Assembly (NCBI GenBank): GCA_017961575.1
Contig: JAGCXA010000021.1
Coordinates: 2,102 to 66,101, forward strand
Direction of reading: 5' to 3'
DNA from: Clostridia bacterium
GTDB taxonomy: Bacteria > Bacillota > Clostridia > Oscillospirales > CAG-272
Length of the DNA stretch: 64,000 nucleotides
The notes below the pieces were generated by a model, which was not told where the DNA came from, did not search any database, and saw nothing but the letters and a program-made list of their open reading frames with translations. Both the position numbers and the translations under genes were made by a program. Of the stretch, positions 4,727 to 44,016 are shown piece by piece. Each line of letters opens with the position of its first letter. The first letter of the stretch is position 1.

Positions 4727-4755
4727 ATTATACCACGCAATATGGTTTTTGTCAA
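4727..4755 (-). promoter_or_regulatory. SigA-type promoter of the degV-yloV operon
   Basis: Minus strand TTGACA-17 nt-TATAAT with TGg extended -10 (ttgacaaaaaccatattgcgtggtataat). Confidence 0.6.
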
Positions 4756-4791
4756 CAGATGTGCGGTTTTTTGGTGTCCGCATTTTTGAAT

Positions 4792-5143
4792 CCGCACGAA
4801 GTGCGGTATGTCATCCACGCGCAGCGTGGCATGTAATCCGTGCAGAGCACGGTATGTAATCCACCCAAAAGGTGGTATGTAATTCGCCCGCAGGGCGACC
4901 GTAACCAAGTCTTTCACTCAAAAGCGTGGAACTTACCGCTTGCGGGGCAAGCGGATTGGATTACATACTGCGCGCAAGCGCGCAGATTACATACGCGCCT
5001 GCGGCGCAATTACATACCGCCCGCGCGGCGGACGGATTACATCCACCCCTACGGGGTGATTTGGAACGACGGGGACGGATTACATCCACCCCTACGGGGT
5101 GATTGGGAACGACGGATTGCGTTCCACGCCGCGCGCGGCGTGG
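4792..5143. repeat. Hairpin array 1: 12 GC-rich palindromes joined by the constant linker TATGTAAT (left arm) / ATTACATA (right arm)
   Basis: Palindromes start at 4792, 4815, 4838, 4861, 4884, 4936, 4968, 4995, 5017, 5044, 5087 and 5124, with nine linker copies. Read directly from the sequence. Confidence 0.85.
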
Positions 5144-5158
5144 ATTCGGAAGCAATGG

Positions 5159-6067
5159 TTACGACAGGGAGAGGGTGCGCGCGATTTGGCGGGAGATCTC
5201 GCGCGGCAGATCGTCGGGGCGGACGCCGTAGGCGGAATACTGTTCGGTCAGCGCGTCGCCCGCCGCGCCGTGCAGGTAAACGGCGAGGATCGCGGCGTCG
5301 CGGGGGTCAGACCCCTGTGCGAGAAGCGAAACGAGAAGTCCGGCGAGCACGTCGCCGCTCCCGCCCTTGGCAAGCCCCGATCCGCCGGTCGTATTGACGG
5401 CGACTTCCCCGTCGGGGGAGGCGATCACGGTCCCGGCGCCCTTTAAAACGAGGGTGACGCCGTACTCTTCGGCAAAGCGGGCGGCGACGCCGACGCGGTC
5501 GGAGTTGATCTCGTCGACCGGGAGACCCGACAAGCGGGCGAATTCAAGGGGATGCGGGGTCAGGATCACGGGACGCGCGGCGACCTTCAAGCGTTCGAGC
5601 GACGTCTCGCGCGCAAGGGCGAGCGCGTTCAGGGCGTCGGCGTCGAGGACGACGGGACAGCCCGGCGCCGCGAGCAGTTCACAGAGCGAGAGACGAAGCC
5701 GATCGGAGCATCCCGAACCGCAGCCGACGAGGACGGCGGTCGCCCGCGCGGCGAGGTCAAGCGGCAGATACGCGCCGATCTTCGAGGGCGAAAACGCCGT
5801 ACCGATAACCGACGGCGCGCGGGAGAGGACGAGCGAAACGACCGACTCGCACGAGACGATCTCGACAAGCCCCGCGCCGCCCGCAAGCGCCGCCTCGGCG
5901 GAAAGGCACGCCGCGCCGCGGTATTGTTCGCTCCCGCAGTAAAGGAGGGCGCGTCCGAAGGTCCCCTTGTTGCCGTCCTCGGGACGGGCGGGGATCAGCG
6001 ACGCGGCAAACGCGGCGTCGAGTAGGCGCGGCGAGCCGATCTTCTCTTGTTCGGGCTGTTTTTTCAT
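5159..6067 (-). CDS. nnrD: ADP-dependent NAD(P)H-hydrate dehydratase (YjeF C-terminal, carbohydrate-kinase family)
   Basis: 302 aa. NKGTFGRALLYCGS...VLDADALN...GGSGLAKGGSGDVLAGL motifs. Confidence 0.85.
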   Translation of the reverse strand: MKKQPEQEKIGSPRLLDAAFAASLIPARPEDGNKGTFGRALLYCGSEQYRGAACLSAEAALAGGAGLVEIVSCESVVSLVLSRAPSVIGTAFSPSKIGAYLPLDLAARATAVLVGCGSGCSDRLRLSLCELLAAPGCPVVLDADALNALALARETSLERLKVAARPVILTPHPLEFARLSGLPVDEINSDRVGVAARFAEEYGVTLVLKGAGTVIASPDGEVAVNTTGGSGLAKGGSGDVLAGLLVSLLAQGSDPRDAAILAVYLHGAAGDALTEQYSAYGVRPDDLPREISRQIARTLSLS

Positions 6068-6178
6068 ACCGTTTCCTCCCGGCGAAGTTCATCTTTCTTT
6101 TCCGATTTTCCATTATAGCACGAAGCGTCCGTTTCCGCAAGTCATTCCCGATTTTTCGCCCTTTCGGCAAAAAAACAC

Positions 6179-6207
6179 TTTACAGAAACGCGGTTTTGTG
6201 GTATACT
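6179..6207 (+). promoter_or_regulatory. SigA-type promoter of the cytidylate-kinase-like gene
   Basis: TTTACA-17 nt-TATACT with TGg extended -10. The start codon follows an AAGGAGG RBS. Confidence 0.55.
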
Positions 6208-6250
6208 GTATACGGAACCGAGATCGCACAAGCGAAGGAGGATTTTTGAT

Positions 6251-6883
6251 ATGGCGGATAAGATTGTCATCACGATCGCACGGCAGTACGGAAGCGGCGG
6301 GCGCGAGATCGGCGAGAAGGTCGCCGACGCGCTCGGCATCAAGCATTACGACGAAAACCTCATCACCCTGGCGGCGCGGGAGGGGAATCTGGACGAAACG
6401 GTGGCGAGCAAAGCCGACGAGAGCGCGGCGAACAGTCTGCTCTACACGCTGGCGCTCGGATCCAACTTCTTCGGGTCGGCGATGAACTTCGGCTACAAGC
6501 CGCCGCTCAACGACAAACTCTTTCTTCTGCAATCCGACGTGATCCGTCGGGCGGCGGAAGAGGGGAGCTGCGTCATCATCGGGCGCTGCGCCGACTACGT
6601 TCTGCGCGAACATCCGAAGCGGCTCTCGATCTTCGTCTACGGCGATCTTCCCAACCGGAAACAGCGCGTGATGGAACGGCACGAGGGGATCACCGAAGCG
6701 CAGGCGATCGACCTCATCAACAAGACCGACCGGCGGCGCTCGTCCTACTACAACTTCTACACCGGGAACAAGTGGGGCAAATACGACAACTACCACCTCG
6801 CGGTGAACAGCAGTCTGCTCGGGATCGACAAGACGGCGGAGTTGATCGCGGATATGGCAAAACTCCTTATGGAGAAAAAATAA
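6251..6883 (+). CDS. Cytidylate kinase-like family protein (P-loop-like QYGSGG)
   Basis: 210 aa. MADKIVITIARQYGSGGREIGEKVADALGIKHYD... is typical of the Cytidylate_kin2 family. Confidence 0.8.
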   Translation: MADKIVITIARQYGSGGREIGEKVADALGIKHYDENLITLAAREGNLDETVASKADESAANSLLYTLALGSNFFGSAMNFGYKPPLNDKLFLLQSDVIRRAAEEGSCVIIGRCADYVLREHPKRLSIFVYGDLPNRKQRVMERHEGITEAQAIDLINKTDRRRSSYYNFYTGNKWGKYDNYHLAVNSSLLGIDKTAELIADMAKLLMEKK

Positions 6884-6895
6884 TCTGTTTGAATC

Positions 6896-6922
6896 GCCCG
6901 GGCGGAAACGCCCGGGCTTTTT
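6896..6922 (+). terminator. Intrinsic terminator
   Basis: gcccgggcg-gaaa-cgcccgggc, a 9-bp stem plus ttttt. Confidence 0.8.
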
Positions 6923-6933
6923 CGTTTTCGAAT

Positions 6934-7359
6934 CCAAGCCGCCCGCGGCTTGGTACGTGATCCGCCCCCGTCGTTCCAAATCACCCCGGAGGGGTGGATG
7001 TAATCCATCCGCCGCGCGGATGGTATGTAATTGCGCCGCAGGCGCGTATGTAATCCGTTCGCGAAGCGGACGGTATGTAATCCGCTTGCCCCGCAAGCGG
7101 TACGGTATTCGCAAGGGACGAAAAAACCCGGCACCACCTCATCTGTCATTCCGTGACATCTTCCCCTCAAGTGGAAGACTTGGTACGTCCCCTGCGGGAA
7201 ATTCCATACAATGCTTCGCATTGGTTACATACTGCCCTTTGGATGGATTACATACCGTGCTTTGCACGGATTACATGCCACGCTTCGCGTGGATTACATA
7301 CCGCACTTCGTGCGGATTTGGAACGACGGGGGGCAGATTACATACCGCACTTTGTGCGG
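6934..7359. repeat. Hairpin array 2: inverted copy of array 1, same linker-plus-variable-hairpin architecture
   Basis: Palindromes start at 6934, 6982, 7005, 7033, 7055, 7082, 7209, 7232 (degenerate), 7255, 7278, 7301 and 7345. Linkers are TATGTAAT, then ATTACATA. Confidence 0.85.
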
Positions 7360-7455
7360 ATTTGGAACGAAACAGAAAAGTTTACATTTTGGGATGGTAT
7401 TTCAGGGAATAGTATGGTAAAATGGTAGAAGAGAAATTATGCGAAGGAGACCGAT

Positions 7456-31974: not shown

Positions 31975-32017
31975 ATACCGCCCGCCCCGGAATGGGGCGG
32001 GCGGTATTGCTTTTTTT
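31975..32017. terminator. Strong bidirectional terminator (left border of the polysaccharide cluster)
   Basis: ataccgcccgcccc-5 nt-ggggcgggcggtat, a 14-bp stem, plus tgcttttttt. Confidence 0.85.
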
Positions 32018-32022
32018 CGGGA

Positions 32023-33048
32023 TCATCTGTTCCCGTACATTTTGTCGTAGTATTTCAGGTAATCGCCCGACGTGCATTCGTCAAGCCACCAGCCGTTCTC
32101 TTTGTACCACGCGATCGTCAGTTTGATGCCGTCGCAAAACATCGTCGTCGGAGCCCAGCCGAGTTCCGCCGTCGCCTTCGACGGGTCGATCGCGTACCGC
32201 TGATCGTGTCCCTTGCGGTCCGCGACGAAGCGGATCAGCGACTCGGGTTTCCCGAGTTCGGAAAGGATGATCTTCACGATCTCGATATTGGACTTCTCGT
32301 TGTGTCCGCCGAGGTTGTAGACCTCGCCGACCTTCCCTTTTTCGAGAACCGCCAGGATCCCGCGGCAATGATCCTCCACGTAGAGCCAGTCGCGGACGTT
32401 CAGTCCCTTTCCGTAGACCGGCAGTTCCTTGTCGTGCGTGGCGTTGTGGATCATCAGGGGGATGAGTTTTTCGGGAAACTGATACGGTCCGTAGTTGTTG
32501 GAACAGCGCGAGACCGTCACCGGCAAGCCGTAGGTGCGGTGATACGCGAGGGCGAGCAGATCCGCCGCCGCCTTGGACGTCGAATAGGGGCTGGACGTTC
32601 TGATCGGCGTGTCTTCGTGGAAGAACAGATCGGGGCGGTCGAGCGGGAGATCCCCGTAGACCTCGTCGGTCCCGACCTGATGGAAACGCTCGACGCCGAA
32701 CGCCCGGCAGGCGTCCATCACGACCTGCGTCCCGAGGATGTTGGTCTGCAAAAAGAGTCCGGGATCCTCGATCGAGCGGTCGACGTGCGACTCTGCGGCG
32801 AAGTTGACGACGACGTCGGGGCGCTCTTTCTTGAAGATCTCGAAGATCCCCTCCCGACGCCTGATATCCTCACGGTAGAAGACGTACCGGGGATCCTTCA
32901 TTTCCTCCCTGATCGTGGAGGGGTTGGCGGCGTAGGTCAGGCAGTCGACGTTGACGACCTTCCAATCGGGTCTCTCTTTCAGAATGAGTTTGCAGAAGCA
33001 GTTTCCGATGAAACCCGCTCCGCCGGTGACAAGGATCGTTTTTTTCAT
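32023..33048 (-). CDS. rfbB: dTDP-glucose 4,6-dehydratase
   Basis: MKKTILVTGGAGFIGNCF...YSTSKAAADLL. Start set to ATG 33048. Confidence 0.92.
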   Translation of the reverse strand: MKKTILVTGGAGFIGNCFCKLILKERPDWKVVNVDCLTYAANPSTIREEMKDPRYVFYREDIRRREGIFEIFKKERPDVVVNFAAESHVDRSIEDPGLFLQTNILGTQVVMDACRAFGVERFHQVGTDEVYGDLPLDRPDLFFHEDTPIRTSSPYSTSKAAADLLALAYHRTYGLPVTVSRCSNNYGPYQFPEKLIPLMIHNATHDKELPVYGKGLNVRDWLYVEDHCRGILAVLEKGKVGEVYNLGGHNEKSNIEIVKIILSELGKPESLIRFVADRKGHDQRYAIDPSKATAELGWAPTTMFCDGIKLTIAWYKENGWWLDECTSGDYLKYYDKMYGNR

Positions 33049-33061
33049 CGTTTTTCCCCCG

Positions 33062-33943
33062 TTACTTGTTTTCGGCGTCACAGAGACCGAGCAAATACTG
33101 ACCGTACTCGGTCATCTTCAATTCTTCCCCGATCTCTCTCAGCTGCGCGGTGGATATGAAACGCCTTCTCCAAGCGATCTCCTCGATGCAGGAGACGTAA
33201 AAGCCCTGCCTCTCCTGAACGGTCGCGACGAATTCGGCTGCCTGCAACATCCCCTTCGGCGTCCCGGTGTCGAGCCAGGCGAACCCCCGCTGCAACAGTT
33301 TGACTTTCAGCCGGTTCTGTCTCAGATACTCGTTGTTGACCGCCGTGATCTCGATCTCGCCGCGTGCGGACGGTTTTACGTTCTTCGCGATCTCAACGAC
33401 GCTGTTGTCGTAAATATACAGTCCCGGAACGGCGTAGTCGGATTTCGGTTTCTGCGGCTTCTCTTCTATGGACACGACCCTGTTGTTTTTGTCGAACTCG
33501 ACGACGCCGAAAGCCGTCGGATCCTTCACCGGGTATCCGAAGATCGTGGCGCCCTCGTTTTTGTCGATCGCGTCCCGCAGAATGTCCGTCATATCGGGAC
33601 CGTAAAAAACGTTGTCCCCCAGAATCAAGCAGACGGAATCGTCCCCGATGAACTCCTCGCCGACGATAAAGGCGTCCGCCAGTCCCCTCGGAGTCTCCTG
33701 AACCTTATAGGAGAAATTCACGCCGATCCGGGAGCCGTCCCCGAGCAATTTGCGGTAAACCGGCAGATCGTCGGGCGTCGAAATAATCAGAACGTCTTTC
33801 ACCGACGCCAGCAACAGCATCGACAAAGGATAATAAATCAGCGGCTTGTCGTAAATCGGCAACAGTTGTTTCGACACCGCTTTGGTCATCGGATAAAGAC
33901 GCGTGCCTTTCCCGCCCGCTAAAATGATTCCCTTCATTTTCAT
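33062..33943 (-). CDS. rfbA: Glucose-1-phosphate thymidylyltransferase
   Basis: [41 protein letters not shown]. Confidence 0.92.
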
Positions 33944-34326
33944 TCGCCCCCTCTTATGTATTCCGTCGGATCGTAATACTCGTCCGACAAGGTTAAAAGA
34001 ACCGCGTCGCTTGAAAAATCGTACATATCCTTCCAGACCAGTTTCGGAACGTAGAGCCCGACGTTCGGTCGGTCCAGCGTGACGACGTACTCTTCGGTTC
34101 CGTCATACAGCCGGATCTTACAACTCCCGGCAAGATTGATAAAGACGAAGTCGGATTTCTTATTGGCGTGCCGACCCCTGACCGTATCTTCGTTCGCCCC
34201 GTAAATGTAAAAGATCCGCTTGATTTCGAACGGAATATCTTTGAGCGCTTCGACGACGACCAGTTGCCCCCTCTCGTCTCCGCGTTCCGTGAATTCAAAC
34301 AATCTGCATTTTTCCCTCAGATTCAT
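33940..34326 (-). CDS. fdtA: dTDP-4-keto-6-deoxyhexose 3,4-ketoisomerase (FdtA/WxcM-like cupin)
   Basis: 128 aa from ATG 34326 (overlaps the upstream stop). [24 protein letters not shown]...RGRHANKK...[28 protein letters not shown] closely resembles FdtA. Confidence 0.7.
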
Positions 34327-35426
34327 ACTTCCCCCCGAAACCCGTTCAGGATCTCGATGACGTAATCCTGTTCTTCTTTTTTCATTCCGGTATACAAAGG
34401 CAAACTCAAAACCGTCGAGGCGTATTCCTCCGTGATCGGGAAGTCGCCCTTCCGGTATCCCTGCCAAGCGTAACACTCGGCGAGATGCGGCGGAATGGGA
34501 TAGTGGATCTGCGTCTGGATGCCGTTTTCCTCCAAGTAGTCGTGCAGCGCGTCCCTTTCCGCGCAGCGGATCACGAACTGATGATACACGTGGTTCACGC
34601 CCGCAAGCGTTTCGGGTTTTATGATTTTCGGGTTGCGGATCCCGTCGTAATATCTCTTGCCCAAAACGTATCTCTCGTTCGTGATTTCATCCATATGGGA
34701 CAGTTTGACTCTCAGGAGCGCCGCTTGCATCTCGTCAAGCCGTGAATTGACCCCCTCGATCTCGTTGTGATACTTTACGCGGGAACCGTAATTTCTCATC
34801 ATACGGATTTTCCCCGCCAGATCCGCGTCCTCGGTCACGACGCAGCCGGCGTCGCCGAACGCTCCCATGTTCTTCGTCGGGTAAAAACTGAAACATCCGA
34901 TTTTTCCGAACGTCCCGGTTTTTTTGCCCTGAAAGCAGGACTCGTGAGACTGCGCGCAATCCTCGATCACCGGAAGACCGTGCCGATCAGCCACCTCCAT
35001 GATTCTGTCCATCCGGGACGCCTGACCGTAAAGATGGACGACCATAACGGCTTTCGTCTTATCGGTAATCTTTTCTTCGATTTTGTCCGCGTCGATATTG
35101 AAATACTCGTCGGGTTCCACGTAAACGGGGGTCGCGCCGTTCTCCGTGATTCCGAGCACCGTTGCGATGTACGTGTTCGCCTGAACGATCACCTCGTCGC
35201 CTTCCCCGATTCCGAGCGCTCTGACCGAGAGGATCAGCGCGTCCAAACCGGAGTTCAATCCGACGCAGTATTTCGCGTTCATATGCTTGCCGAACTCTTC
35301 TTCGAACTGCTTTACCTCGTTGCCGAGGATATACCACCCGGATTTCAGAACGCGCAGAGCTGCCGCGTCATATTCGCTTTCAAACATCCGGTATTGCCTG
35401 TCCAACACGTTGCAACTGATCTTCAT
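34323..35426 (-). CDS. DegT/DnrJ/EryC1/StrS-family sugar aminotransferase (FdtB/QdtB-like)
   Basis: 367 aa, LDRQYRMFESEYDAAALRVLKSGWYILGNEVKQFEEEF..., PLP-lysine region FSFYPTKNMGAFGDAG. Confidence 0.85.
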   Translation of the reverse strand: MKISCNVLDRQYRMFESEYDAAALRVLKSGWYILGNEVKQFEEEFGKHMNAKYCVGLNSGLDALILSVRALGIGEGDEVIVQANTYIATVLGITENGATPVYVEPDEYFNIDADKIEEKITDKTKAVMVVHLYGQASRMDRIMEVADRHGLPVIEDCAQSHESCFQGKKTGTFGKIGCFSFYPTKNMGAFGDAGCVVTEDADLAGKIRMMRNYGSRVKYHNEIEGVNSRLDEMQAALLRVKLSHMDEITNERYVLGKRYYDGIRNPKIIKPETLAGVNHVYHQFVIRCAERDALHDYLEENGIQTQIHYPIPPHLAECYAWQGYRKGDFPITEEYASTVLSLPLYTGMKKEEQDYVIEILNGFRGEV

Positions 35427-35453
35427 TCGTGTACGTCCTCCCGCGGCGGTCCT

Positions 35454-36596
35454 TTACGGAATATATCTTCTGGATATTTGTCTGTACGAAAAGTGCTTCA
35501 TTCCATTGTCCGCCGCCGACTGCATTTTTTGAAGTTCCGATTCGTTTTCGATCAGCGTGACCAGATTCTCGTAGATCTCGTCTGCCGAATCGCGGTACAG
35601 GAAGCGCACGTTTCCGCCGATATCGATGTGCGTTGTGCCTTCCCAATACTTTACGATCATGGGTTTCCCGAGTCCGACGACCTGCTCCCAATAAACCGAA
35701 TGCCTGCCGGGAAAGACGACCAGATCCGCCATATTGAAATAACGGTAACTCTCCCGCGAATCCAACCATCCGGCATAGAAAACACGATCGTTCAGTCGCT
35801 CTGAAAACGCATCCTTTATCTCTTCCGAAACCGATCCGAAAACGATCAGTTTCACGTTCTTCCGTTCTATCCTTTTCACCGCGTCCATCAACAGGAGCGT
35901 CTGCGTCTTGGCGGCGTCGATCTTTCCGCCCGTAACGATCAGGAAATCGTCGTCTTTGATTCCGAATTTGTCTTTCAGATCGTCGTTCGGCGTTCTCTTC
36001 GTTTCCTCGACGATCTCATCGTCGGCGCCCATTACCAGGAGTTCCGTCTTATCTGCCGGAATCTTATACACGTTCTTCAAAAAGTCTACTCTGGCGGGCA
36101 AAACGCCGAAGAATTTTTGCGCGTAGGGGACGAGTTTTTGCGCGTAGTGCCTCCAAATAATCTTGTGCAGGACGTTCTTTGACAGAAAGCCCCTCGCGCT
36201 GTTTGAAAAATCGGCGTGATTGTCGACGTACAGCACCGTCTCCGGGTGACGGCGCATATACTTCGCGACGACCTTCGTATCGATGAAAGAGCAACTGTGA
36301 CAAAACAGAATGTCGGGCTGCACCTCGCACAGTTTCTCGTAAACGCCGACAAACCGTTTCAGTCTTCTGCCGTAGTCGTTTCTTCCTTTGATCTCGAACC
36401 GATAGTAGGAAACTCCCTCGTAAACGTAGGAATCCCTCTCGTCGTAAAACAAAACGCCCTCGTTGTTATAGATCCATTTGGCGGCGAAAATATAGGTGTC
36501 GTATCCGTCCAGACGATTGAATTTCGACAGATTGTTTTCCTGATAGTTAAAGCCGGGCGTAACCGCGCCGTTCAGAGCGAGATGAACGATCTTCAT
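35454..36596 (-). CDS. Glycosyltransferase (GT-B, family 4/1-like)
   Basis: 380 aa with the C-terminal pattern of the GT1/GT4 fold. Overlaps the next gene by 4 nt. Confidence 0.6.
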   Translation of the reverse strand: MKIVHLALNGAVTPGFNYQENNLSKFNRLDGYDTYIFAAKWIYNNEGVLFYDERDSYVYEGVSYYRFEIKGRNDYGRRLKRFVGVYEKLCEVQPDILFCHSCSFIDTKVVAKYMRRHPETVLYVDNHADFSNSARGFLSKNVLHKIIWRHYAQKLVPYAQKFFGVLPARVDFLKNVYKIPADKTELLVMGADDEIVEETKRTPNDDLKDKFGIKDDDFLIVTGGKIDAAKTQTLLLMDAVKRIERKNVKLIVFGSVSEEIKDAFSERLNDRVFYAGWLDSRESYRYFNMADLVVFPGRHSVYWEQVVGLGKPMIVKYWEGTTHIDIGGNVRFLYRDSADEIYENLVTLIENESELQKMQSAADNGMKHFSYRQISRRYIP

Positions 36597-37603
36597 TTGC
36601 TGGCACTTCCTGTTTGCTTCATAATATTGGACAGTCTGGTGATTTTAAAGGGCATCACGTAATTCTGAATGAATCGGAACACGGGGTTTCTGTACGTGGA
36701 CCGTTTGGCGGAAAACCGAATGGAATACCGTTCTTCCAAGTACTCTCTTTTCCTGTGTATCTCATTCAGGTACTTCCCGTATATTCTCGTCTTCAAAAAG
36801 CGGTTGCGCTTCTTCAAATTGATGTTCACCAACCCGAAGGGGAGATACCGGATATTCTGGAAATGATAGAAACAGAGCGGAAAACGCTCGTGGGATTCAT
36901 TATCGGTCAGATAATAGCGTTGATCCCGACAATCGAAAGAATACCGCTCGGCGTTCCATGGCGCGACCCCGCCGCCCGGATTTTGAAGAATATGAACGCA
37001 GGCATATCGGGAAGGCCACTTTTCCAGATACATCTGATCGCCGTGCGTTTCGCTTCCCTTGTTATAACTGCAAGATCTCATACAGTCGCTGACCCAGCTG
37101 CTTAAAACCTCTCGGGCGGCTTCCGTGTTCAGAAACGTGTTGAACTCCACGCAGAACGTACCGTATTTCTTTTCCAGACTGATTCTTTTTCTTTCCGGGA
37201 AACCGTGTCTGACGATCAGAACTTCTTTTCGATCCTCCGTCATTTCAAGTAACAGGTCGCTCGGATCGGAAAAAAAGTACATATCCGCGTCGATATACGT
37301 GCAAACGGGTTCGTGAAAATAATCCAGCACGTATTGGATCGTCAGGGGCGTCCAGGTCCAGCAATACTCCGCAAAGGATCTGTTCCGTTTGATCTCCCGC
37401 AATTCTTCGTTTTCGAGCGAAGAAACGTCGACGCAGATCACGTTCTCGTCGGTCGTTTCTTCCAGAATGCGGAACGCTTCCGGATCCATTGCGAAAATAT
37501 ACAGTTTGAAATCGGGCGCCGCTCTTTTCAGCGAGTCGACCAAAACGAGACCTTTGTCAAGATAGCCGCGGTTAAACAGCGTGCAAAAAACGTTATAATT
37601 CAT
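36593..37603 (-). CDS. Putative nucleotide-diphospho-sugar transferase (GT8-like)
   Basis: 336 aa, MNYNVFCTLFNRGYLDKGLVLVDSL...YIDADMYF (DxD-like). Confidence 0.5.
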   Translation of the reverse strand: MNYNVFCTLFNRGYLDKGLVLVDSLKRAAPDFKLYIFAMDPEAFRILEETTDENVICVDVSSLENEELREIKRNRSFAEYCWTWTPLTIQYVLDYFHEPVCTYIDADMYFFSDPSDLLLEMTEDRKEVLIVRHGFPERKRISLEKKYGTFCVEFNTFLNTEAAREVLSSWVSDCMRSCSYNKGSETHGDQMYLEKWPSRYACVHILQNPGGGVAPWNAERYSFDCRDQRYYLTDNESHERFPLCFYHFQNIRYLPFGLVNINLKKRNRFLKTRIYGKYLNEIHRKREYLEERYSIRFSAKRSTYRNPVFRFIQNYVMPFKITRLSNIMKQTGSASK

Positions 37604-37607
37604 TATC

Positions 37608-39044
37608 TTACCTCGTTTTTCTTAACCTGAACGACCGAAAACAGTCCTTTTGGAAAAGCATCAAATAGAAAAACGACAGAACCGTCGCGGTACCCCCGCC
37701 GATCAGGATCTTTGCCACGAGTGAAAGAACGCCGAAAGACCACAAGCGGTTGAGGAACAGAATCTCAACGAACATAATCGCACCGATTATGCCGAAAGCG
37801 ACGAACGGCTGAACGAACGCGGAAAAACGGATCGATTTTCTGCACAGAACGATCTGGTAGACCAGTCCGAACAGTTCCGCCGACAGGGTGCCGATGATGG
37901 CTCCGTAGATCCCGATGAACGGGATCAGCGACGCGCTGAGCGCCAGATTGACCGCCGCGCTGAGGCACAGGCAGACGGTGAATTCCTTATCTCTTCCGTA
38001 GGGCAGCAGGAACCCGGTCCGGATCACGTCCCCGATGCAAAGGACGTAGATGACGGGAGACAACGCCCGGATAACCGTCCCGCATTCGACGAACTCTTCT
38101 CCGTAATAGACGACAGCCAATTCTTTGGAAACGGCAAGCAACCCGAAAATGGAAAGCAAAGAAACGAAAGAGGTAATCAGAGCCGCGAGTCTCACGAGCC
38201 GTTCGTGTTCCGCGGTATCTTTTTCTTTCACCAGAAAACAGATCCTCGGATAAAGGATCGTTCCGATTACCAAGGCAACGGATTTCGGAATGTTGATGAT
38301 TTTGTTCGAGTATTCGTAGATGGCGACGTCGTCGGTTCCGACGATGAGACCGATCAGAGTCTTGTCAAACAACGTATAGAGCGTGGCGGCAATAACGCTG
38401 ACGAACAGAACCGACAGGGGTTTCAAGTGAACGGCGCAATCGCGCGGCTTCACTCTTATCGGCTTGCAAAAAAGCAACGCGGTCAAAAAGAGCACGACGT
38501 CGGCGGACAAAAGGCACGTCGCCGTAATCAGGGCGTACTTCCAAAGATCCGCCTCGCTTTTCACGAACGTGAAAATCAAAACCATTTCCGCGATCTTGAA
38601 AAGCGCGTTCACAAGGGCAACCGACCGGAAATCCTCTTTCCCTTGGAAGAACCACGTTACGTCGAACAGAGCGGTCAGGACGTAGAGCGCTTCAATTAAG
38701 TAGATCGTCCGATGATCGGGAATGAAAAAGATAACGATGAAATAGACGCAGAGAGCCACGACCGAAAAAGCCGCGTGAACCAGATACAGACTCCAAAAAG
38801 AAGAACGCTCCCCAAATTTGTCGCCGCCGCTCGACGCGATCGCTCTCGGACCGTATTTGGCGATCCCCAGCATCGAAAAAACGATAAAGTAGAAGGCGAA
38901 CGTATTTACGAACGTAAAAACGCCGATCTCATTCTTTCCGATCGTTCTCGTCAAATAAGGCGCGACGAAAAGAGGAACGACCATTGTTACAGCCAAATAT
39001 ACAGTTTGATAAAAATAATTGGCGGCAACGCTCTTTCTTTTCAT
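37608..39044 (-). CDS. Oligosaccharide flippase (Wzx / polysaccharide biosynthesis protein family)
   Basis: 478 aa with about 12-14 hydrophobic segments. Lies within the glycosyltransferase cluster. Confidence 0.7.
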   Translation of the reverse strand: MKRKSVAANYFYQTVYLAVTMVVPLFVAPYLTRTIGKNEIGVFTFVNTFAFYFIVFSMLGIAKYGPRAIASSGGDKFGERSSFWSLYLVHAAFSVVALCVYFIVIFFIPDHRTIYLIEALYVLTALFDVTWFFQGKEDFRSVALVNALFKIAEMVLIFTFVKSEADLWKYALITATCLLSADVVLFLTALLFCKPIRVKPRDCAVHLKPLSVLFVSVIAATLYTLFDKTLIGLIVGTDDVAIYEYSNKIINIPKSVALVIGTILYPRICFLVKEKDTAEHERLVRLAALITSFVSLLSIFGLLAVSKELAVVYYGEEFVECGTVIRALSPVIYVLCIGDVIRTGFLLPYGRDKEFTVCLCLSAAVNLALSASLIPFIGIYGAIIGTLSAELFGLVYQIVLCRKSIRFSAFVQPFVAFGIIGAIMFVEILFLNRLWSFGVLSLVAKILIGGGTATVLSFFYLMLFQKDCFRSFRLRKTR

Positions 39045-39934
39045 TATTCGTCTTCCCTGATTCTCTTTATTAAATCCAGGCGTCCGTCAAACAGAGAACG
39101 GATCTGCTCGTCGTTTTTCAAGCCGTTCACGTTCTGCGTCATCAGTTTTTGGTTGTTTTTGATCATCAGATCGACGAAAACGAAATGCTCGTATTCCTTC
39201 GTTTTCACGACCTTGACCGAGTTTTCGAGACTATTGTATTTCAGCCATACGTCGTCGGCTGTCGGCGTCTTTTTCATAAACGATTCCCGATCGAGCAAAA
39301 GATCCGTTTTCATACGTCCGGCGGGATAACAAACGCCCCCGCATCCGATCGGCATAATCCGATACATAGGCACGCCGGTCTCCGTCTCTCTTTCCCACGT
39401 CGAATACGCGGCAAAGGAGTCGTTTTCCACGAGCATACGGGAGCCGACGGTGCAGGAAACGAATCTGTTTTCCGAAGCCCCGAGCAGTACCTCAACGAGA
39501 TCTTCCGGATAGATCATATCGTCGTCAACCGTGATGATCGTTTTTTCTCCGTATTCCTGGAAAGCGTAATAATACTTCTTATGAGACCGGAGATCTCCGT
39601 CGACCAACCGGATTTCCGCGAGCTGATTCTGATGCAATTTCAGGAGTTTTTTCGGCAGCACGGAAAGGTCGCCGAACTGATCGCGCGACAGATACAAAAC
39701 GATTTTTTCGGGCGGCACGGTTTGCCGGAGCAGCGACTCGATTACGAGATGGACCTTCCCGATTCTGGCGGGAAAACTGGTCAGTGAAACGACTACGTCC
39801 GGGCGCTTGCCGTCGGTTTTCCTTGAAGAGAACTTCAAACAGATCGGATAAAAGCAATTCAGAAACAGTTTATAAAACCGATATTTTGTAAGTCCGAACC
39901 GGGAATCCACCCGCTTATAAATCTCTTTGATCAT
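39044..39934 (-). CDS. Glycosyltransferase (GT-A like)
   Basis: 296 aa, VVVSLTSFPARIGKVHLVIESLLRQTVPPEKIVLYLS...TVDDDMIYP (DxD). Confidence 0.55.
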   Translation of the reverse strand: MIKEIYKRVDSRFGLTKYRFYKLFLNCFYPICLKFSSRKTDGKRPDVVVSLTSFPARIGKVHLVIESLLRQTVPPEKIVLYLSRDQFGDLSVLPKKLLKLHQNQLAEIRLVDGDLRSHKKYYYAFQEYGEKTIITVDDDMIYPEDLVEVLLGASENRFVSCTVGSRMLVENDSFAAYSTWERETETGVPMYRIMPIGCGGVCYPAGRMKTDLLLDRESFMKKTPTADDVWLKYNSLENSVKVVKTKEYEHFVFVDLMIKNNQKLMTQNVNGLKNDEQIRSLFDGRLDLIKRIREDE

Positions 39935-39956
39935 ATCTCACTCCGTCGCTTCGGTA

Positions 39957-41117
39957 TCAATAGTAGTAAAAGGCGAGCAGATAGTAGGACGTCATCCACA
40001 AATCGCAAAGAGCAAACAGGATGACGGCGGATACCCCTTTGAATCTGAGCGTTTTCGCCCCCCAGTTGGCGCTGAGAATATTCGAGAGCGCGGAATAGAC
40101 GATAAAGCTGGCAAGAAAAACGATCCGAAACGATCCTTGAATCGTATTGTATACCGCCAAAAGCACAATGCTTATCAACGTGCAAAGCGCAAGAAAATGC
40201 TTATCCTTTTGCCGGGCTTCGAGTCGTTCGGATACGCGCGGGTCGTTTTCCGCCCCGCCTTGCCCGGCGTCGCCCGGATCCGGAAGCGAAACCGAAACGA
40301 ACGAATCAAATTTGAAAATGAGCCAGATGCAGCAGAGGATCGGAAAGAGGTTGATTAAAAGGAACGAGATATTCAGCAGAACCGGTTCGTCAAGAGACGA
40401 CGAACGGAAAAGATAGTACTGTACTTTCTCAAGCAGATCGAAACTGGATTTCTTATGCTCGCCCAGATTCAGGAACCTCCAAGGGATCAGCGCCAAAAGT
40501 CCCGCGGCGATCAGCGGTTTATAGATCTTCCGTTTTCTGAAAGCCACGACGATTTCGATCAGCAGCGCCAAGACCGAGGAGTAATGGAATCCGATCGCGA
40601 ACAAATAGAGGACGGCTTTCCCGATTTTGTTTTTCGTATGATACGCCGCGTAGATGAAGGCGATCGCAACGATCGCGCGCGTCAGATCGAAGTGATACAT
40701 CATCAACACAGAGAACGAGAACAGGTGCGCGAGCGGCTTTTCCGCGCGAAGAATATTCGCGCCGAAGATCGTAAACGGAATCATATAAAGCAGAAGACAG
40801 AACTGCGCAAAACTGAGCCCCAGAATCTTTGACAGACTCATCGACAGGAGATAAAACGGTTCAAAATGCGCCGCAAAGAGTTTTTTCAAACTGAACCCGC
40901 TGAAAAAGTCCGACACGGAAAACGTGTGGTAATCCAACGTATAATTGACCCAGTCCAACCCCAGCGTTCGGAAAGAATAAATCAAAAGCAGAACGATCAG
41001 AATGCCGAGCGATATTCTTGCCTGAACTATGTAGGAAGAATTCCGGTACAGATAGGAAATGACAAAAATCAGCGCGAAAAGACAAATAAAAATGATAAAT
41101 TGCGGCTCTTTGTTCAT
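39957..41117 (-). CDS. EpsG/Wzy-like polysaccharide polymerase membrane protein
   Basis: 386 aa, polytopic, aromatic-rich. Position in the cluster supports the call. Confidence 0.55.
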   Translation of the reverse strand: MNKEPQFIIFICLFALIFVISYLYRNSSYIVQARISLGILIVLLLIYSFRTLGLDWVNYTLDYHTFSVSDFFSGFSLKKLFAAHFEPFYLLSMSLSKILGLSFAQFCLLLYMIPFTIFGANILRAEKPLAHLFSFSVLMMYHFDLTRAIVAIAFIYAAYHTKNKIGKAVLYLFAIGFHYSSVLALLIEIVVAFRKRKIYKPLIAAGLLALIPWRFLNLGEHKKSSFDLLEKVQYYLFRSSSLDEPVLLNISFLLINLFPILCCIWLIFKFDSFVSVSLPDPGDAGQGGAENDPRVSERLEARQKDKHFLALCTLISIVLLAVYNTIQGSFRIVFLASFIVYSALSNILSANWGAKTLRFKGVSAVILFALCDLWMTSYYLLAFYYY

Positions 41118-41129
41118 ATCATCACCATT

Positions 41130-42308
41130 TCAAAACAGAATTGAATTCAGCGAATCCAGCAGTTTGTTTTTATCAAAGCAACGCTTCACGTAACGCAGCG
41201 CGTTCGTCCTGAACGTCCCGGCGTCCGAGCGCCTCAAAACGGAAATGGCGGACGCAAGCGCTTCCGGGTTCCCGGTTTCACAGCATACGCCGCATCCGGC
41301 TTCGTTGATTATTCTTTCGGTCTCTCCCGAAGCCGACGCAAGAATCGGCATTCCGCAAGCCATATAACTCTGCAATTTTGCCGGAATCGTTTTGTTGAAC
41401 AACGGATGATCCATAAACGACACGAACGCCGCGTCGCAAGTGCAGAGCAATTCCGGTATTCTTTGCGCGGGCTGACGGTTGATGAACAAAAACTTCTCTT
41501 TTACGTCGGCGGTTTCCTCTACGAGTTGTTCTTTATACCTTCCGTCGCCGACAATGACGAACAGGACGTCGTCGACCAGTTTGGCGACCTTCGGCAGAAT
41601 ATCAAGCCCCTGCGCCGTTCCGACGTTGCCGGTAAAGATGATCTTGAATCTGCCGTCGTTAGGGATCTCCGCGGGCGACGGGTCCTCGACCGGTTTGTAG
41701 ATCTCCTCCGCGTATTGGGGCCAATAAACGACCTTCTCTTTATCCGTCACTCTCTCCCGGATCGCCTCCACGAAAGAGGGGGACGTCGCGAGCACCTTCG
41801 TACAAGCGGCGTACAACTTGTCCGCCATCTTCTGATAATGATTCAGGACGCGCTTGTTATGAACGCCGCCGACGGCTTCCAGATTTTCGGGCCACAAATC
41901 CTGTACGTAGAGATAACTCGGGATCTTTCTTCTTTTGGAAAACCACTTGCCTATCAACGCCTGCGTCAGAGGTGAAACTTCAAAAACGAAAACCGCGTCC
42001 GGTTTCAACCCGGTAAACGTCTTCCACAGCCAGCCGGACCATACGAAAGAATAATAATTCAGAACGAGTCGAAGAGAAGAGCGTCCCCTGGATATGATGG
42101 GGAGACGGATAACGTCTATCCCGTTCCAATTCTCTTTTCTTTTTCTGAACCAGCCGTATCCTTTATAGAATTTTCCCTCGGGATAGTTCGGTATTCCCGT
42201 CAGAACGGTGACCTTGTACCCCCGCGAGACCCACTCTTGGCATATATCGTTGATCCGGAACGGTTCCGGATAAAAATACTGCGATATAACCAGAATGTGT
42301 TTGCTCAT
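41130..42308 (-). CDS. Glycosyltransferase family 4 (WbuB-like)
   Basis: Start set to ATG 42308 (overlaps the upstream stop). MSKHILVISQYFYPEPFRINDICQEW... Confidence 0.7.
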   Translation of the reverse strand: MSKHILVISQYFYPEPFRINDICQEWVSRGYKVTVLTGIPNYPEGKFYKGYGWFRKRKENWNGIDVIRLPIISRGRSSLRLVLNYYSFVWSGWLWKTFTGLKPDAVFVFEVSPLTQALIGKWFSKRRKIPSYLYVQDLWPENLEAVGGVHNKRVLNHYQKMADKLYAACTKVLATSPSFVEAIRERVTDKEKVVYWPQYAEEIYKPVEDPSPAEIPNDGRFKIIFTGNVGTAQGLDILPKVAKLVDDVLFVIVGDGRYKEQLVEETADVKEKFLFINRQPAQRIPELLCTCDAAFVSFMDHPLFNKTIPAKLQSYMACGMPILASASGETERIINEAGCGVCCETGNPEALASAISVLRRSDAGTFRTNALRYVKRCFDKNKLLDSLNSILF

Positions 42309-43183
42309 CGTCTCTCCGTTTCCGCAATGCTTTCTTTGAGATCGTATTTTCGGTACTCGGTTTTGTATTCGCTCATCTCTTTTTCGTAGGCGAGGTTTCC
42401 GAACGCCTTGTTTACCGTACCGGAAAACAGACCGAAGATCTTTAACAGCCAACCGAAGCCCTTGACGATCCGGATCTTTTTTCCGTTCGCCTCCGCAATC
42501 ATTTTCACCAATTCACTCGTGTTTGAGTATTCGGCGTTCTGCGGAAAGAAGATCCCCTCTTCGCCGTTCTCGATCATCAGCCGGACGAATTCGACGAGAT
42601 TGCCGATATAAAGCATGGACCGTTCGTTTTTGACGAAGGGGAAAAAAGGCAGTTTGGTCGCGAATTTCTCCAACTGCGGAAAATTGCCCCGGCTTCCCTT
42701 TCCGTAAATCATCGGGGGACGCAGGACGCAGACCTTAAACCGATCGTCCGACAGCGGAAGGATCCCGCGTTCCGCCTGCAATTTGGAATCGCCGTAGCAA
42801 TTGGCGGGAGAGGTCGGGGTATCGCGGGTAATGATCTTTCTGCGCCCGATCCTGCCGCTTGCCCCGTAGACGATGGCGCTTGACATAAAGATAAACTGTC
42901 CGACGCCGTCGGCTTTCGCTTTCTTCGCGGTCTCGACGGTCAGATCGGTGTTGACGGAGCGGTAGAGTTTCTCTTTCTCCGCGGAAATCTTCCCGTTGTC
43001 GGAGTGGGCGATGCCCGCCACGTGAAAGACGGCGTCGTATCCGGCAAAACTCTTCTCTCTCCACGTTCCGTCGATCATATCGACGACGTCGACCCGATAC
43101 GATTCGGCGTAATTCTCGTTGATATACTTTTCAAACGACGTGCCGATATAGGAACCGGCGCCGGTAATCAGTATCTTTTTCAT
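42305..43183 (-). CDS. NAD-dependent sugar epimerase/dehydratase
   Basis: MKKILITGAGSYIGTSF... Rossmann motif, YGDSKLQAE catalytic YxxxK. Confidence 0.8.
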   Translation of the reverse strand: MKKILITGAGSYIGTSFEKYINENYAESYRVDVVDMIDGTWREKSFAGYDAVFHVAGIAHSDNGKISAEKEKLYRSVNTDLTVETAKKAKADGVGQFIFMSSAIVYGASGRIGRRKIITRDTPTSPANCYGDSKLQAERGILPLSDDRFKVCVLRPPMIYGKGSRGNFPQLEKFATKLPFFPFVKNERSMLYIGNLVEFVRLMIENGEEGIFFPQNAEYSNTSELVKMIAEANGKKIRIVKGFGWLLKIFGLFSGTVNKAFGNLAYEKEMSEYKTEYRKYDLKESIAETERR

Positions 43184-43815
43184 TGCTTCTCCGGCTTCTC
43201 TTCTTTATGCATTTCTCCGGTTCCGCCCTCGACGACCCCCTCGTGCCGAAAGACCGAAAAAACCGTCCGGAACAGGAGTCCGACGTCATAGAAGATTCCC
43301 CGTTTTTCAACGTATTCGCCGTCGAATTTTGCCTTTACGGGTATTTCCAGTTCGTCTCTGCCGCTGATCTGCGCCAAACCCGTAAGTCCGGGCTTGACCT
43401 CGTTTGCGTGATACTTGTCTCTCTCGGCGATCAGGTCGTCCTGATTCCACAAGGCGGGGCGCGGTCCGACGAAACTCATCTGACCGGCGAAGATGTTGAA
43501 CAGTTGCGGCAGTTCGTCGATCGAGGTTTTGCGGATGAATTTCCCCACCTTCGTAATGTGGGCGTCCGCGTGATCCAGTTGATGGGTGGGGGCGTTCGGA
43601 TCGGTGTCCGTATACATTGATCGGAATTTCAGGATCTTAAAGATTTTTTTGTTTTTGCCGATCCTGTCCTGCTTGAAGAAAACGGGACCTTTGCTGTCGC
43701 ACTTCACCATGATCGCCACGATCAGCAACGGAAGCGAAAGCAGTATGATCGCAACGAATGAGAAAACAAGATCAAAACACCTTTTCAAGAAGGAATAAAC
43801 CGGTTTCTTTTTCAT
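43180..43815 (-). CDS. Initiating undecaprenyl-phosphate sugar phosphotransferase (bacterial sugar transferase family)
   Basis: KRCFDLVFSFVAIILLSLPLLIVAIMVKCDSKGPVFFKQDRIGKNKKIFKILKFRSM...DELPQL. ATG 43815 has a GGAG RBS. Confidence 0.85.
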   Translation of the reverse strand: MKKKPVYSFLKRCFDLVFSFVAIILLSLPLLIVAIMVKCDSKGPVFFKQDRIGKNKKIFKILKFRSMYTDTDPNAPTHQLDHADAHITKVGKFIRKTSIDELPQLFNIFAGQMSFVGPRPALWNQDDLIAERDKYHANEVKPGLTGLAQISGRDELEIPVKAKFDGEYVEKRGIFYDVGLLFRTVFSVFRHEGVVEGGTGEMHKEEKPEKQ

Positions 43816-43987
43816 TTGCCGAGACTCCAATTTCGATTACTTGCCTTTCTTTATTATCCGACTGCGCCGTACGGTCGCCGCGAATCAAAAAACCGCAGAC
43901 GCCCCGCGAAAGCGCGCCTTTCGTTTCCGGCAAAAGCCGGACGCTTCTCTTGCGCGCGCGACGCGCCGCGAAAAAAACTCTTTGTAT

Positions 43988-44016
43988 ATTTTAACATAAT
44001 AAAACAAAAAAGTCAA
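43988..44016 (-). promoter_or_regulatory. SigA promoter of the polysaccharide operon (followed by a ~170-nt leader)
   Basis: Minus strand TTGACT-17 nt-TAAAAT with TGt extended -10. Confidence 0.55.

Follow-up and report, generated by a model that had tools for sequence, protein, structure and literature searches.

Inward-facing arrays of mini-hairpins in gut and rumen Clostridia: a dispersed intergenic repeat that may be tied to PF05635 proteins

A 64,000-nucleotide stretch of DNA from a Clostridia bacterium (Oscillospirales, CAG-272; assembly GCA_017961575.1, contig JAGCXA010000021.1, positions 2,102 to 66,101), hereafter the window, contains two arrays of short hairpins, one on each side of a divergent gene pair, nnrD and a cytidylate-kinase-like gene. 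We find that both arrays have the design of a repeat family that is dispersed through the genomes of gut and rumen Clostridia, has its polarity set by the flanking genes, turns over between strains, and keeps its hairpins paired while their sequence changes. Arrays of this linker type also recur directly upstream of a gene for a protein of Pfam family PF05635. In the reading that we consider probable, the window holds two paralogous orphan copies of a fast-evolving dispersed DNA repeat whose constant linker is the cognate word of one PF05635 subfamily. The family appears to be undescribed so far: we searched the literature for the sequences, the concept and the protein family and found neither these arrays nor a link between PF05635 and repeats described, apart from a trace discussed below.

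Two hairpin arrays in the window

An earlier note on this DNA, made from the letters alone, had described two inverted copies of one array around the gene pair. Array coordinates, on the plus strand of the window, are as follows.

4789-5151, minus strand as element sense: array 1
4792-4898: array 1, five units of hairpin plus (T/C)ATGTMAT
4899-4935: array 1, centre
4936-5058: array 1, units of ATTACATA plus hairpin
5030-5072 and 5073-5115: array 1, 43-nt unit present twice, each copy ending in ATTKGGAACGACGG
5124-5143: array 1, outermost hairpin, CCACGCCGCGCGCGGCGTGG
6934-7369, plus strand as element sense: array 2
6934-6953: array 2, outermost hairpin (h0)
up to 7100: array 2, left arm, with ATGTAAT-type linkers
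7101-7187: array 2, non-repeat centre
7188-7369: array 2, right arm, with ATTACAT-type linkers
7287-7329 and 7331-7373: array 2, 44-nt terminal duplication; the array ends in GATTTGGAACG

The unit-by-unit match between the reverse complement of array 1 and array 2 is confirmed: in a global alignment of the reverse complement of 4780-5160 against 6920-7385, the two are collinear and identical in 292 of 323 aligned columns (90%). Three large indels separate them, namely the duplicated 43-nt unit of array 1, some 65 extra nucleotides in the centre of array 2, and the 44-nt terminal duplication of array 2. An independent repeat search returned the inverted pairs 4978-5106/6934-7062 (84%) and 4789-4882/7225-7318 (93%), and matched at 100% the pair ccgcttgc-ggg/ccc-gcaagcgg that had been cited as proof of inversion; all example strings quoted in the note were located in the sequence. 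Overlooked there was that each array is dyadic inside. Units of a hairpin followed by TATGTAAT (ATGTAAT type) make up one arm and units of ATTACATA (ATTACAT type) followed by a hairpin make up the other, with a non-repeat centre between them and a period of 23 nt.

The 64 kb contain 19 occurrences of the motif GGATTACAT, one mismatch being allowed, where 5.0 +/- 2.1 are expected and none of 100 shuffles reached 19; 15 of the occurrences fall within the two arrays. A generic search for runs of short perfect hairpins found only these two arrays in the window; three chance-level runs of three hairpins occur elsewhere, where shuffles yield 0-2. Folded as single-stranded DNA, array 2 reaches -127.6 kcal/mol, compared with -75 +/- 4.6 for shuffled sequence (z = -11.3). 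Eleven hairpins are homologous between the arrays. Three are identical, four differ in the loop only, two show compensated base-pair swaps, and two have stems replaced or altered by a paired indel; in the same comparison the hairpin at 7233-7247 is decaying, with three G.T pairs and one broken pair. The earlier statement that differences either sit in a loop or replace a whole stem is therefore mostly right, but not strictly so. Loops in the window arrays are GAA, GCA, GTA, GGA and AAA.

A dispersed family with fixed polarity

A scan with the pattern GATTACAT-N14-20-GATTACAT-N14-20-ATTACAT, one genome per species, found at least 117 loci and places the family in more than 100 Oscillospirales species; the loci are nearly all in Acutalibacteraceae, Oscillospiraceae or "Clostridia" metagenome-assembled genomes (MAGs) from gut or rumen, of 32-62% GC. 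Motif clusters are arranged in the order ATGTAAT...ATTACAT in 85 of 122 cases and in the reverse order in only two, with a spacing mode of 23 nt. Hits outside the Clostridia (Prevotella, Methanosarcina, Providencia and others) were rejected as chance matches, being plain tandem repeats without hairpins; the exception, a Bacteroidota locus, is described with PF05635 below.

The canonical low-GC copy is 170-210 nt long. It begins behind an upstream gene and its A-tract/hairpin/T-tract terminator with TAT-CCAATCCGAAGGATTGG, continues through two or three ATGTAAT units and one TATGKCAT unit to a centre that holds an inverted half-copy of the first hairpin, and ends with three or four ATTACAT units followed by ATTT. 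The last hairpin supplies a -35 box (TTGATT) in many copies, with TGCTATAAT at 17 nt and then a conserved ribosome-binding site. Such an outward promoter and ribosome-binding site (TTGATT-N17-TGCTATAAT...AGGCGGTGAT-ATG) were seen at the right end of many low-GC arrays (L089, L091, L104, L108, L082, L127 and others, where L numbers designate loci), and the genes behind it are small and unrelated to each other: lipoproteins, membrane proteins, a HAD hydrolase. Loci with two or three arrays parted by small genes resemble cassette arrays.

Other linker families of the same design occur in the same genomes: TATATCAT/ATGATATA, TATGGAAT/ATTCCATA, AATTCAC/GTGAATT, GTGATGTG, GTGATAT and TGTGAAATA. Wherever an array of these families has both arms, the linkers of the two arms are reverse complements.

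The orientation of arrays follows transcription. The upstream feature is co-oriented with the array in 47 of 51 cases, 26 of these being tRNA genes, and the distance to the array is 32-41 nt for 24 of the co-oriented upstream features; downstream, the feature is co-oriented in 43 of 49. Both window arrays obey this rule, array 1 having minus sense in the nnrD-degV gap and array 2 plus sense in the gap between the kinase-like gene and secA. It had been noted that transcription leaving the central gene pair meets the same array sense on both sides. This is correct, and is a general property of the family: where polarity is set by the flanking genes, two copies beside a divergent gene pair look like inverted repeats. 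The window arrays share with the family the two inward-facing arms, reverse-complement linkers, a period of about 23 nt, near-perfect palindromes with loops of the C-GNA-G type when read in the ATGTAAT sense, a location between terminator and promoter, and polarity. Neither has immediately downstream the PF05635 gene that marks a "master" copy. Since the window has no PF05635 open reading frame (ORF), both arrays are orphans, like most copies of the family.

The array most similar to a given one mostly lies at a non-orthologous site in another species (up to 93% identity). Vertical descent at one and the same tRNA site was rejected as the main cause of similarity, as pairs at the same tRNA score 0.76 and others 0.73. 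A phage or plasmid origin found no support, a blastn search of 50,697 phage and 72,556 plasmid records giving no match to a canonical copy. Four pattern matches on viral contigs were inspected, and three were ordinary tandem repeats while one (L127) was a canonical array; a metagenome scan for the high-GC terminal motif returned one true array only. Very many contigs with the kinase-like gene or PF05635 genes measure only 0.5-2.3 kb, and several stop within an array. Evidently the arrays break short-read assemblies, and their copy number is under-estimated in MAGs.

Pairing is conserved, stem sequence is not

From the family we collected 363 spacers between linkers, of which 229 are distinct. 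Stems of at least 5 bp are formed by 180 of the 229, but by only 29 of 229 after shuffling. Read in the ATGTAAT sense, the most frequent loops are GAA (41), GCA (20), AAA (13), GTA (10), GTAA (9) and GCAA (8), the complementary loops virtually never occurring in that sense, and the loop-closing pair is C-G in 168 of 216. Among 1160 stem pairs the mismatches are 26 G.T, 20 A.C and 26 others, which shows no strand bias.

When 17 homologous copies from other genomes are aligned, 94.1% of cells are paired, compared with 79.2% after shuffling and 26-37% when slid. Changes on both sides occur in 19 of 34 pairs, a number that none of 500 shuffles reaches, and across the alignment one-sided changes are seen in 5 cells against 81 double changes. 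Stems thus evolve by paired changes. The proposal in the earlier note that the ability to form a hairpin, rather than any particular stem sequence, is what persists is borne out by both the pairing frequencies and the stem counts.

GNA triloops form exceptionally stable DNA mini-hairpins. We infer that the hairpins act at the level of DNA, single-stranded or extruded, because the palindromes are strictly Watson-Crick without tolerance of G.U, the triloops are of the C-GNA-G type, and the arrays lie between terminator and promoter. A pairing of left with right linkers as RNA structure was considered and is not established: folding predicts it, yet some arrays have one arm only, and opposite ATTACATA the innermost left linker regularly reads TATGKCAT. 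Rfam searches of the window, of 16 loci and of single arrays, at gathering and E-value thresholds, returned nothing credible.

Turnover between strains and sister lineages

Strain L002 (also L004 and L006) encodes an identical kinase protein. Its array 2 nevertheless has another centre and several changed hairpins, differing from that of the window by 8% mismatches plus 126 gap columns, whereas most flanks differ by 0.6-2%; array 1 differs only by indels of 43 nt and 5 nt. One unit of the L002 array 2, together with its linker, is the array-1 version (GCCACGCTGCGCGTGGATGACATACCGC), which is evidence for sequence exchange between the two arrays.

Relatives with a kinase 94-97% identical go further. 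Both arrays are absent from L148 and L155, where the intergenic regions are 136/197 nt and 123/159 nt. L160 has nothing at site 1 and an array with AATGACGT linkers at site 2. L158 and L159 have at site 1 a one-plus-two-unit ATTACAT mini-array that shares its left junction with window array 1, and at site 2 an AATTCAC/GTGAATT array. The more distant homologues L152 (80%) and L153 (71%) have no arrays, and their synteny differs. Since the arrays are absent, miniature or of another family in close relatives, those of the window are recent lineage-specific insertions that grow in situ, not a conserved bracket around two genes. More generally, arrays come and go, lengthen and shorten between strains, and they change length by whole units at a time.

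Further variation was seen at individual loci. Two tandem ATTACAT arrays precede the PF05635 gene in L182-L184 (2560-3000) and differ by strain; L184 has no second terminator, and its arrays abut. The right arm of an ATGAAGC array has one unit in L192 and three in L189. In one sister strain (L151:1211-2389) the interval that separates the kinase-like gene from secA has, where array 2 would be, a 392-amino-acid ORF on the opposite strand with no Pfam hit on record. In L002 (2470-2615; also L004 and L006) array 2 has as its centre a GC-rich, highly self-complementary insert of about 140 nt, ...TTGCCTCCCCTACGGGGGAGG...GAAGGGGC...GCCCCTTC...CACGGCAAGCCGTG...CCTCCCCCGTTGGGGAGGCAGG, without a credible Rfam match. 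It recurs in the array centre of another high-GC MAG (L081:4480-4580) and in part in L037, L076 and L094, and looks like a nested element or a small structured RNA.

PF05635 genes behind arrays

A gene of 119 codons recurs directly downstream of ATTACAT arrays. Its product belongs to PF05635 (E = 1.7e-22), described in Pfam as "23S rRNA intervening sequence protein", a four-helix-bundle family. In all 23 orthologue loci (66-100% identity), seven of which were retrieved by protein identity alone, the start codon follows the last ATTACAT at a distance of 37-103 nt. Its relatives in PDB, 2RLD and 2GSC, have five chains per entry, and the array-linked protein, which is Avd-like, is probably pentameric.

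More distant paralogues of this gene are found with arrays of other linkers, in which left and right linker are again reverse complements. The L017 paralogue is preceded by ATGAAGC/GCTTCAT arrays, and its homologues fetched by protein alone (L189-L195) all lie behind a tRNA gene, a terminator and an ATGAAGC/GCTTCAT array. The L123 paralogue is associated with ACATCGTT/AACGATGT linkers, in two copies. At L013 (5280-5790) a paralogue between gyrB-like and gyrA-like genes has (TTCGTAA)x4-5 upstream and (TTACGAA)x4 downstream. In L195 an L017-type paralogue and an ATTACAT-type orthologue stand in tandem, each behind its own type of array.

Three isolated observations touch on this association. The L013 gene, set between the arms, resembles a tiny element whose inverted ends are tandem heptamers. 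In L065 (227-830), a Bacteroidota MAG, a plain tandem repeat that has no hairpins, (CATGATCA/CATGATTA)n, comes directly after a PF05635-like ORF, an arrangement which hints that the link between PF05635 and short repeats extends beyond Clostridia. At L051 (4960-5430) a PF05635 gene behind an ATTACAT array is followed, after about 100 nt, by a gene for an IS200-like Y1 transposase (HUH motif HVHLL); the presence of the transposase gene there is probably coincidental.

A proposed model and its alternatives

In the model we favour, the window arrays are paralogous orphans of a repeat that is spread through Oscillospirales, chiefly Acutalibacteraceae. A family copy consists of two inward-facing arms of units, each unit being a perfect GC-rich palindrome of 11-19 nt plus a constant A/T-rich linker of 7-8 nt. 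Copies occupy the gap that runs from the end of one transcription unit to the promoter of the following one; a bidirectional intrinsic terminator usually marks that end, and the gene before it is very often a tRNA gene. The linker may be the recognition motif of a cognate PF05635 (Avd-like) four-helix-bundle protein, whose gene in each genome would lie immediately behind one such array, and the dispersed arrays may then be multi-site binding platforms for that protein. As the window encodes no PF05635 protein, its arrays would be served in trans. Placed as they are ahead of promoters and behind terminators, the platforms could serve for regulation or insulation; alternatively, the arrays could be the ends or relics of a small selfish element around the PF05635 gene, akin to rRNA intervening sequences. 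A broader proposal, which we regard as possible though short of probable, is that of a new repeat-protein system, in which PF05635 oligomers each read their own 7-nt word, set several times in every arm between mini-hairpins, and the arrays have multiplied through terminator-promoter gaps, preferentially behind tRNA genes. Such a system would either wire dozens of promoters to one protein or be a transposase-less selfish element related to the intervening sequences of 23S rRNA.

Several observations weigh against this model. About a quarter of motif clusters are one-armed. A local hidden Markov model search found no PF05635 ORF in the 64-kb window or in some 12 other high-GC array loci, and arrays of the ATATCAT family were not found beside a PF05635 paralogue in the loci sampled. 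The suggested link to the protein consists of co-localisation and co-variation only. The coupling of orientation to transcription and the GNRA-like loops would fit a role at the RNA level as well. As to an insertion mechanism, comparison of filled with empty site 1 showed no target-site duplication, site 2 being too diverged to judge, and no transposase-bearing version was seen, the neighbours of paired or one-armed arrays being housekeeping or small accessory genes.

The earlier note had proposed that array, nnrD, kinase-like gene and array form a dyad-symmetric unit, functional or capable of inverting a 1.8-kb segment. A pair of inverted arrays of about 350 bp, 90% identical and 1.8 kb apart, would suit such a phase-variable module, as would the signs of exchange between them, seen in the array-1 version of a unit in array 2 of L002. 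We now consider it very improbable. Sister lineages that keep the gene pair, with kinases 94-97% identical, have no arrays (L148, L155) or different ones (L160, L158/L159), so that the pair is not always bracketed, and a lack of flanking arrays in related genomes is what the note itself had named as counting against its reading. All same-species contigs show the same gene orientation, with no flipped 5152-6933 segment, although only three of them span both arrays; and the arrays are generic copies of a dispersed family with polarity set by neighbouring genes. We also rejected the idea that the dyad reflects an origin or terminus of replication, there being no GC-skew or strand switch at 6 kb. 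An RNA-level element seems unlikely. Arrays would here be transcribed by read-through and act as stacked bidirectional terminators, insulators or 3'-end stabilisers, with a hairpin and A/U-rich tail (UAUGUAAU) as the unit. Their polarity is indeed tied to flanking transcription, the same sense is met from both directions, the predicted structure has high stability (z = -11.3), GNRA-like loops occur (GCAA, GTAA, GAAA), and array 1 lies behind nnrD, which has no canonical terminator. However, canonical copies have a strong A-tract/hairpin/T-tract terminator in front of them and the next promoter only behind them, and so should be poorly transcribed. Unlike in RNA helices, G.U is as rare as A.C, and hardly any changes are one-sided. 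Other families have linkers (AATTCAC, AATGACGT, ATGAAGC) that are not rich in U, a terminator scan called no array unit and reported on the relevant strands only 6896-6917, and no Rfam family matches.

The arrays might instead be plain non-autonomous transposable elements, either miniature inverted-repeat transposable elements (MITEs) or similar to repetitive extragenic palindromes (REPs) and the bacterial interspersed mosaic elements (BIMEs) that they form. They would be mobilised by a transposase elsewhere, for example an HUH/Y1 enzyme acting on hairpins in single-stranded DNA, and the PF05635 gene would often travel with them as a passenger or lie where they prefer to insert. Presence/absence polymorphism and nested insertions, multiple copies with nearest neighbours at non-orthologous sites in other species, and the IS200-like tnpA near the L051 array are in keeping with this, and a hairpin with a conserved flanking motif and no target duplication recalls IS200/IS605 and the REPs with their REP-associated tyrosine transposases (RAYTs). 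Yet no transposase is consistently adjacent to arrays, a passenger gene does not explain why the linker type co-varies with the PF05635 paralogue, and the same sites hold different families in sister lineages, with a mini-array growing in situ. We think this account improbable. We give almost no weight to a guide-RNA array, whether of the CRISPR (clustered regularly interspaced short palindromic repeats) type or of the TIGR-Tas type (tandem interspaced guide RNA, a stem-loop array). In its favour, a large screen (PMC10910872) scored "23S rRNA IVP" proteins as CRISPR-array-associated; this one-line listing is the only trace of a link between PF05635 and repeats that we found. But the 23-nt unit is an 8-nt constant linker plus 15 self-complementary nucleotides, without non-palindromic spacers of 8-12 nt or box C/D, no Nop-domain, Tas or Cas gene lies beside arrays, and arrays occupy many dispersed loci, not one.

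The paralogue-specific tie of PF05635 to repeats offers a testable hypothesis for what these proteins bind. We know of no assigned function for this large family outside diversity-generating retroelements (DGRs). The arrays are abundant, fast-evolving intergenic DNA of dominant, mostly uncultured gut and rumen Clostridia, and are a natural case of selection, or a mechanism, that keeps perfect mini-palindromes while sequence turns over. Their variation between strains could serve for typing, and from their terminator-promoter position they may affect the expression of neighbours, here secA and degV-fakA.

Relation to known systems

The closest analogues are REP/BIME-RAYT in logic, BOX elements in modular anatomy and integron attC sites in the principle of structure rather than sequence. 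Like the REP/BIME-RAYT systems of Proteobacteria, the arrays cluster in extragenic DNA at gene 3' ends, are built of short GC-rich palindromes flanked by a short conserved motif, vary in copy number by strain, and include many orphan clusters beside a single-copy cognate gene that has the repeats at its flanks. They differ in having units of about 23 nt, where REPs are of about 35 nt with a GTAG-type 5' tetranucleotide; in forming two inward-facing direct arrays with an 8-nt linker, where REPs alternate in orientation; and in that stems vary by unit while the linker is constant and several linker families coexist. Unlike RAYT, an HUH Y1 transposase, the associated protein is a PF05635 four-helix bundle without a known catalytic motif. 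In a comparison limited to array neighbourhoods, no cognate Y1 (HUH) transposase was found beside the arrays examined, an IS200-like gene lying near one.

Variable numbers of tandem modules, inverted terminal parts, a strong predicted fold and a place beside promoters and terminators are shared with BOX elements of Streptococcus pneumoniae and with modular MITEs. BOX modules, however, are conserved in sequence, follow no rule of variable palindrome and constant linker, have no adjacent cognate protein gene, and belong to a different phylum-level group. As for MITEs, the window arrays do not show the combination of terminal inverted repeats with target-site duplication and a related autonomous insertion sequence.

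With integron attC sites (the Vibrio cholerae repeats of Vibrio) and the attP(+) hairpin of CTX phage, the arrays have in common conservation of structure over sequence, an imperfect dyad and short inverted motifs; they too are probably used as folded single-stranded DNA, and they separate small co-oriented genes of variable content (L082, L104, L108, L113). Unlike attC, the arrays contain no RYYYAAC/GTTRRRY cores, have no IntI or Xer linkage in the neighbourhoods examined, comprise many mini-hairpins each, and are dispersed behind tRNA genes, not gathered in one cassette array.

TIGR arrays consist of units with two variable spacers of 8-12 nt and box C (CCA)/box D (UG), and are served by a Nop-domain Tas protein (Faure et al. 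2025, PMC12045711). Tandem units delimited by variable palindromes, with the possibility of an adjacent small non-enzymatic protein (TasA), are a likeness; the differences are that the non-palindromic part is here a constant 7-8-mer and the protein PF05635, and that the neighbours in the window are nnrD, the kinase-like gene, degV and secA. CRISPR arrays have repeats of 23-47 nt and unique spacers of similar size, whereas here the constant part is 7-8 nt and the variable part self-complementary; CRISPR-DR gave only a sub-threshold match in the Rfam search. Nor are the units tandem intrinsic terminators, which would require a GC-rich hairpin followed directly by a U tract.

The intervening sequences (IVSs) of 23S rRNA and the Avd protein of DGRs share the protein family, and the IVS gene likewise lies between inverted repeats in or beside stable-RNA genes. 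The L013 paralogue, bracketed by (TTCGTAA)n/(TTACGAA)n, is a comparable case. Avd is a nucleic-acid-binding pentamer. Unlike in these systems there is here no rRNA insertion and no reverse transcriptase, and dispersed orphan arrays are not described for them in the literature searched.

Neighbouring genes and signals

The gene order FakA(-), DegV(-), NnrD/Carb_kinase(-), Cytidylate_kin2(+), SecA(+) holds up in Pfam searches, and the degV promoter, kinase promoter and kinase terminator placed by the note were found again.

4727-4755, minus strand: degV-fakA promoter, TTGACA-17-TATAAT with TG, 12/12 match, 33 nt beyond the outer end of array 1
5159-6067, minus strand: nnrD, NAD(P)H-hydrate dehydratase (PF01256), stop codon 13 nt from array 1
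6179-6207: promoter of the kinase-like gene
6251-6883, plus strand: cytidylate-kinase-like gene (PF13189)
6896-6930 (scan: 6896-6917), plus strand: intrinsic terminator of the kinase-like gene, 9-bp GC stem plus T tract
7381-7424, plus strand: putative secA promoter region, TTTACA ... TGGTAAAAT, 11 nt past array 2

Array 2 begins right behind the terminator of the kinase-like gene, as canonical family copies do. The degV-fakA promoter is native, being kept in relatives without the array. The putative secA promoter, read from sequence (a consensus scan gave it no score), is likewise conserved in the array-less relatives L148 and L155, and also in L158. Both central genes are ordinary genes outside the repeat; nnrD occurs without arrays in L148 and L155, and beside an empty array-1 site in L160.

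Compared with L002 (505-1413), nnrD is 6.3% different, where neighbouring genes of the same two strains differ by 0.6-2%, and its last ten or so codons are wholly unlike those of relatives without array 1. This suggests that the 3' end of nnrD was recombined or remodelled at the array junction. Elsewhere, positions 32001-44000 of the window have a GC content of 0.49-0.54, against about 0.62 in the remainder, and carry an unbroken run of minus-strand ORFs (34323-43183); this segment is possibly a horizontally acquired island.

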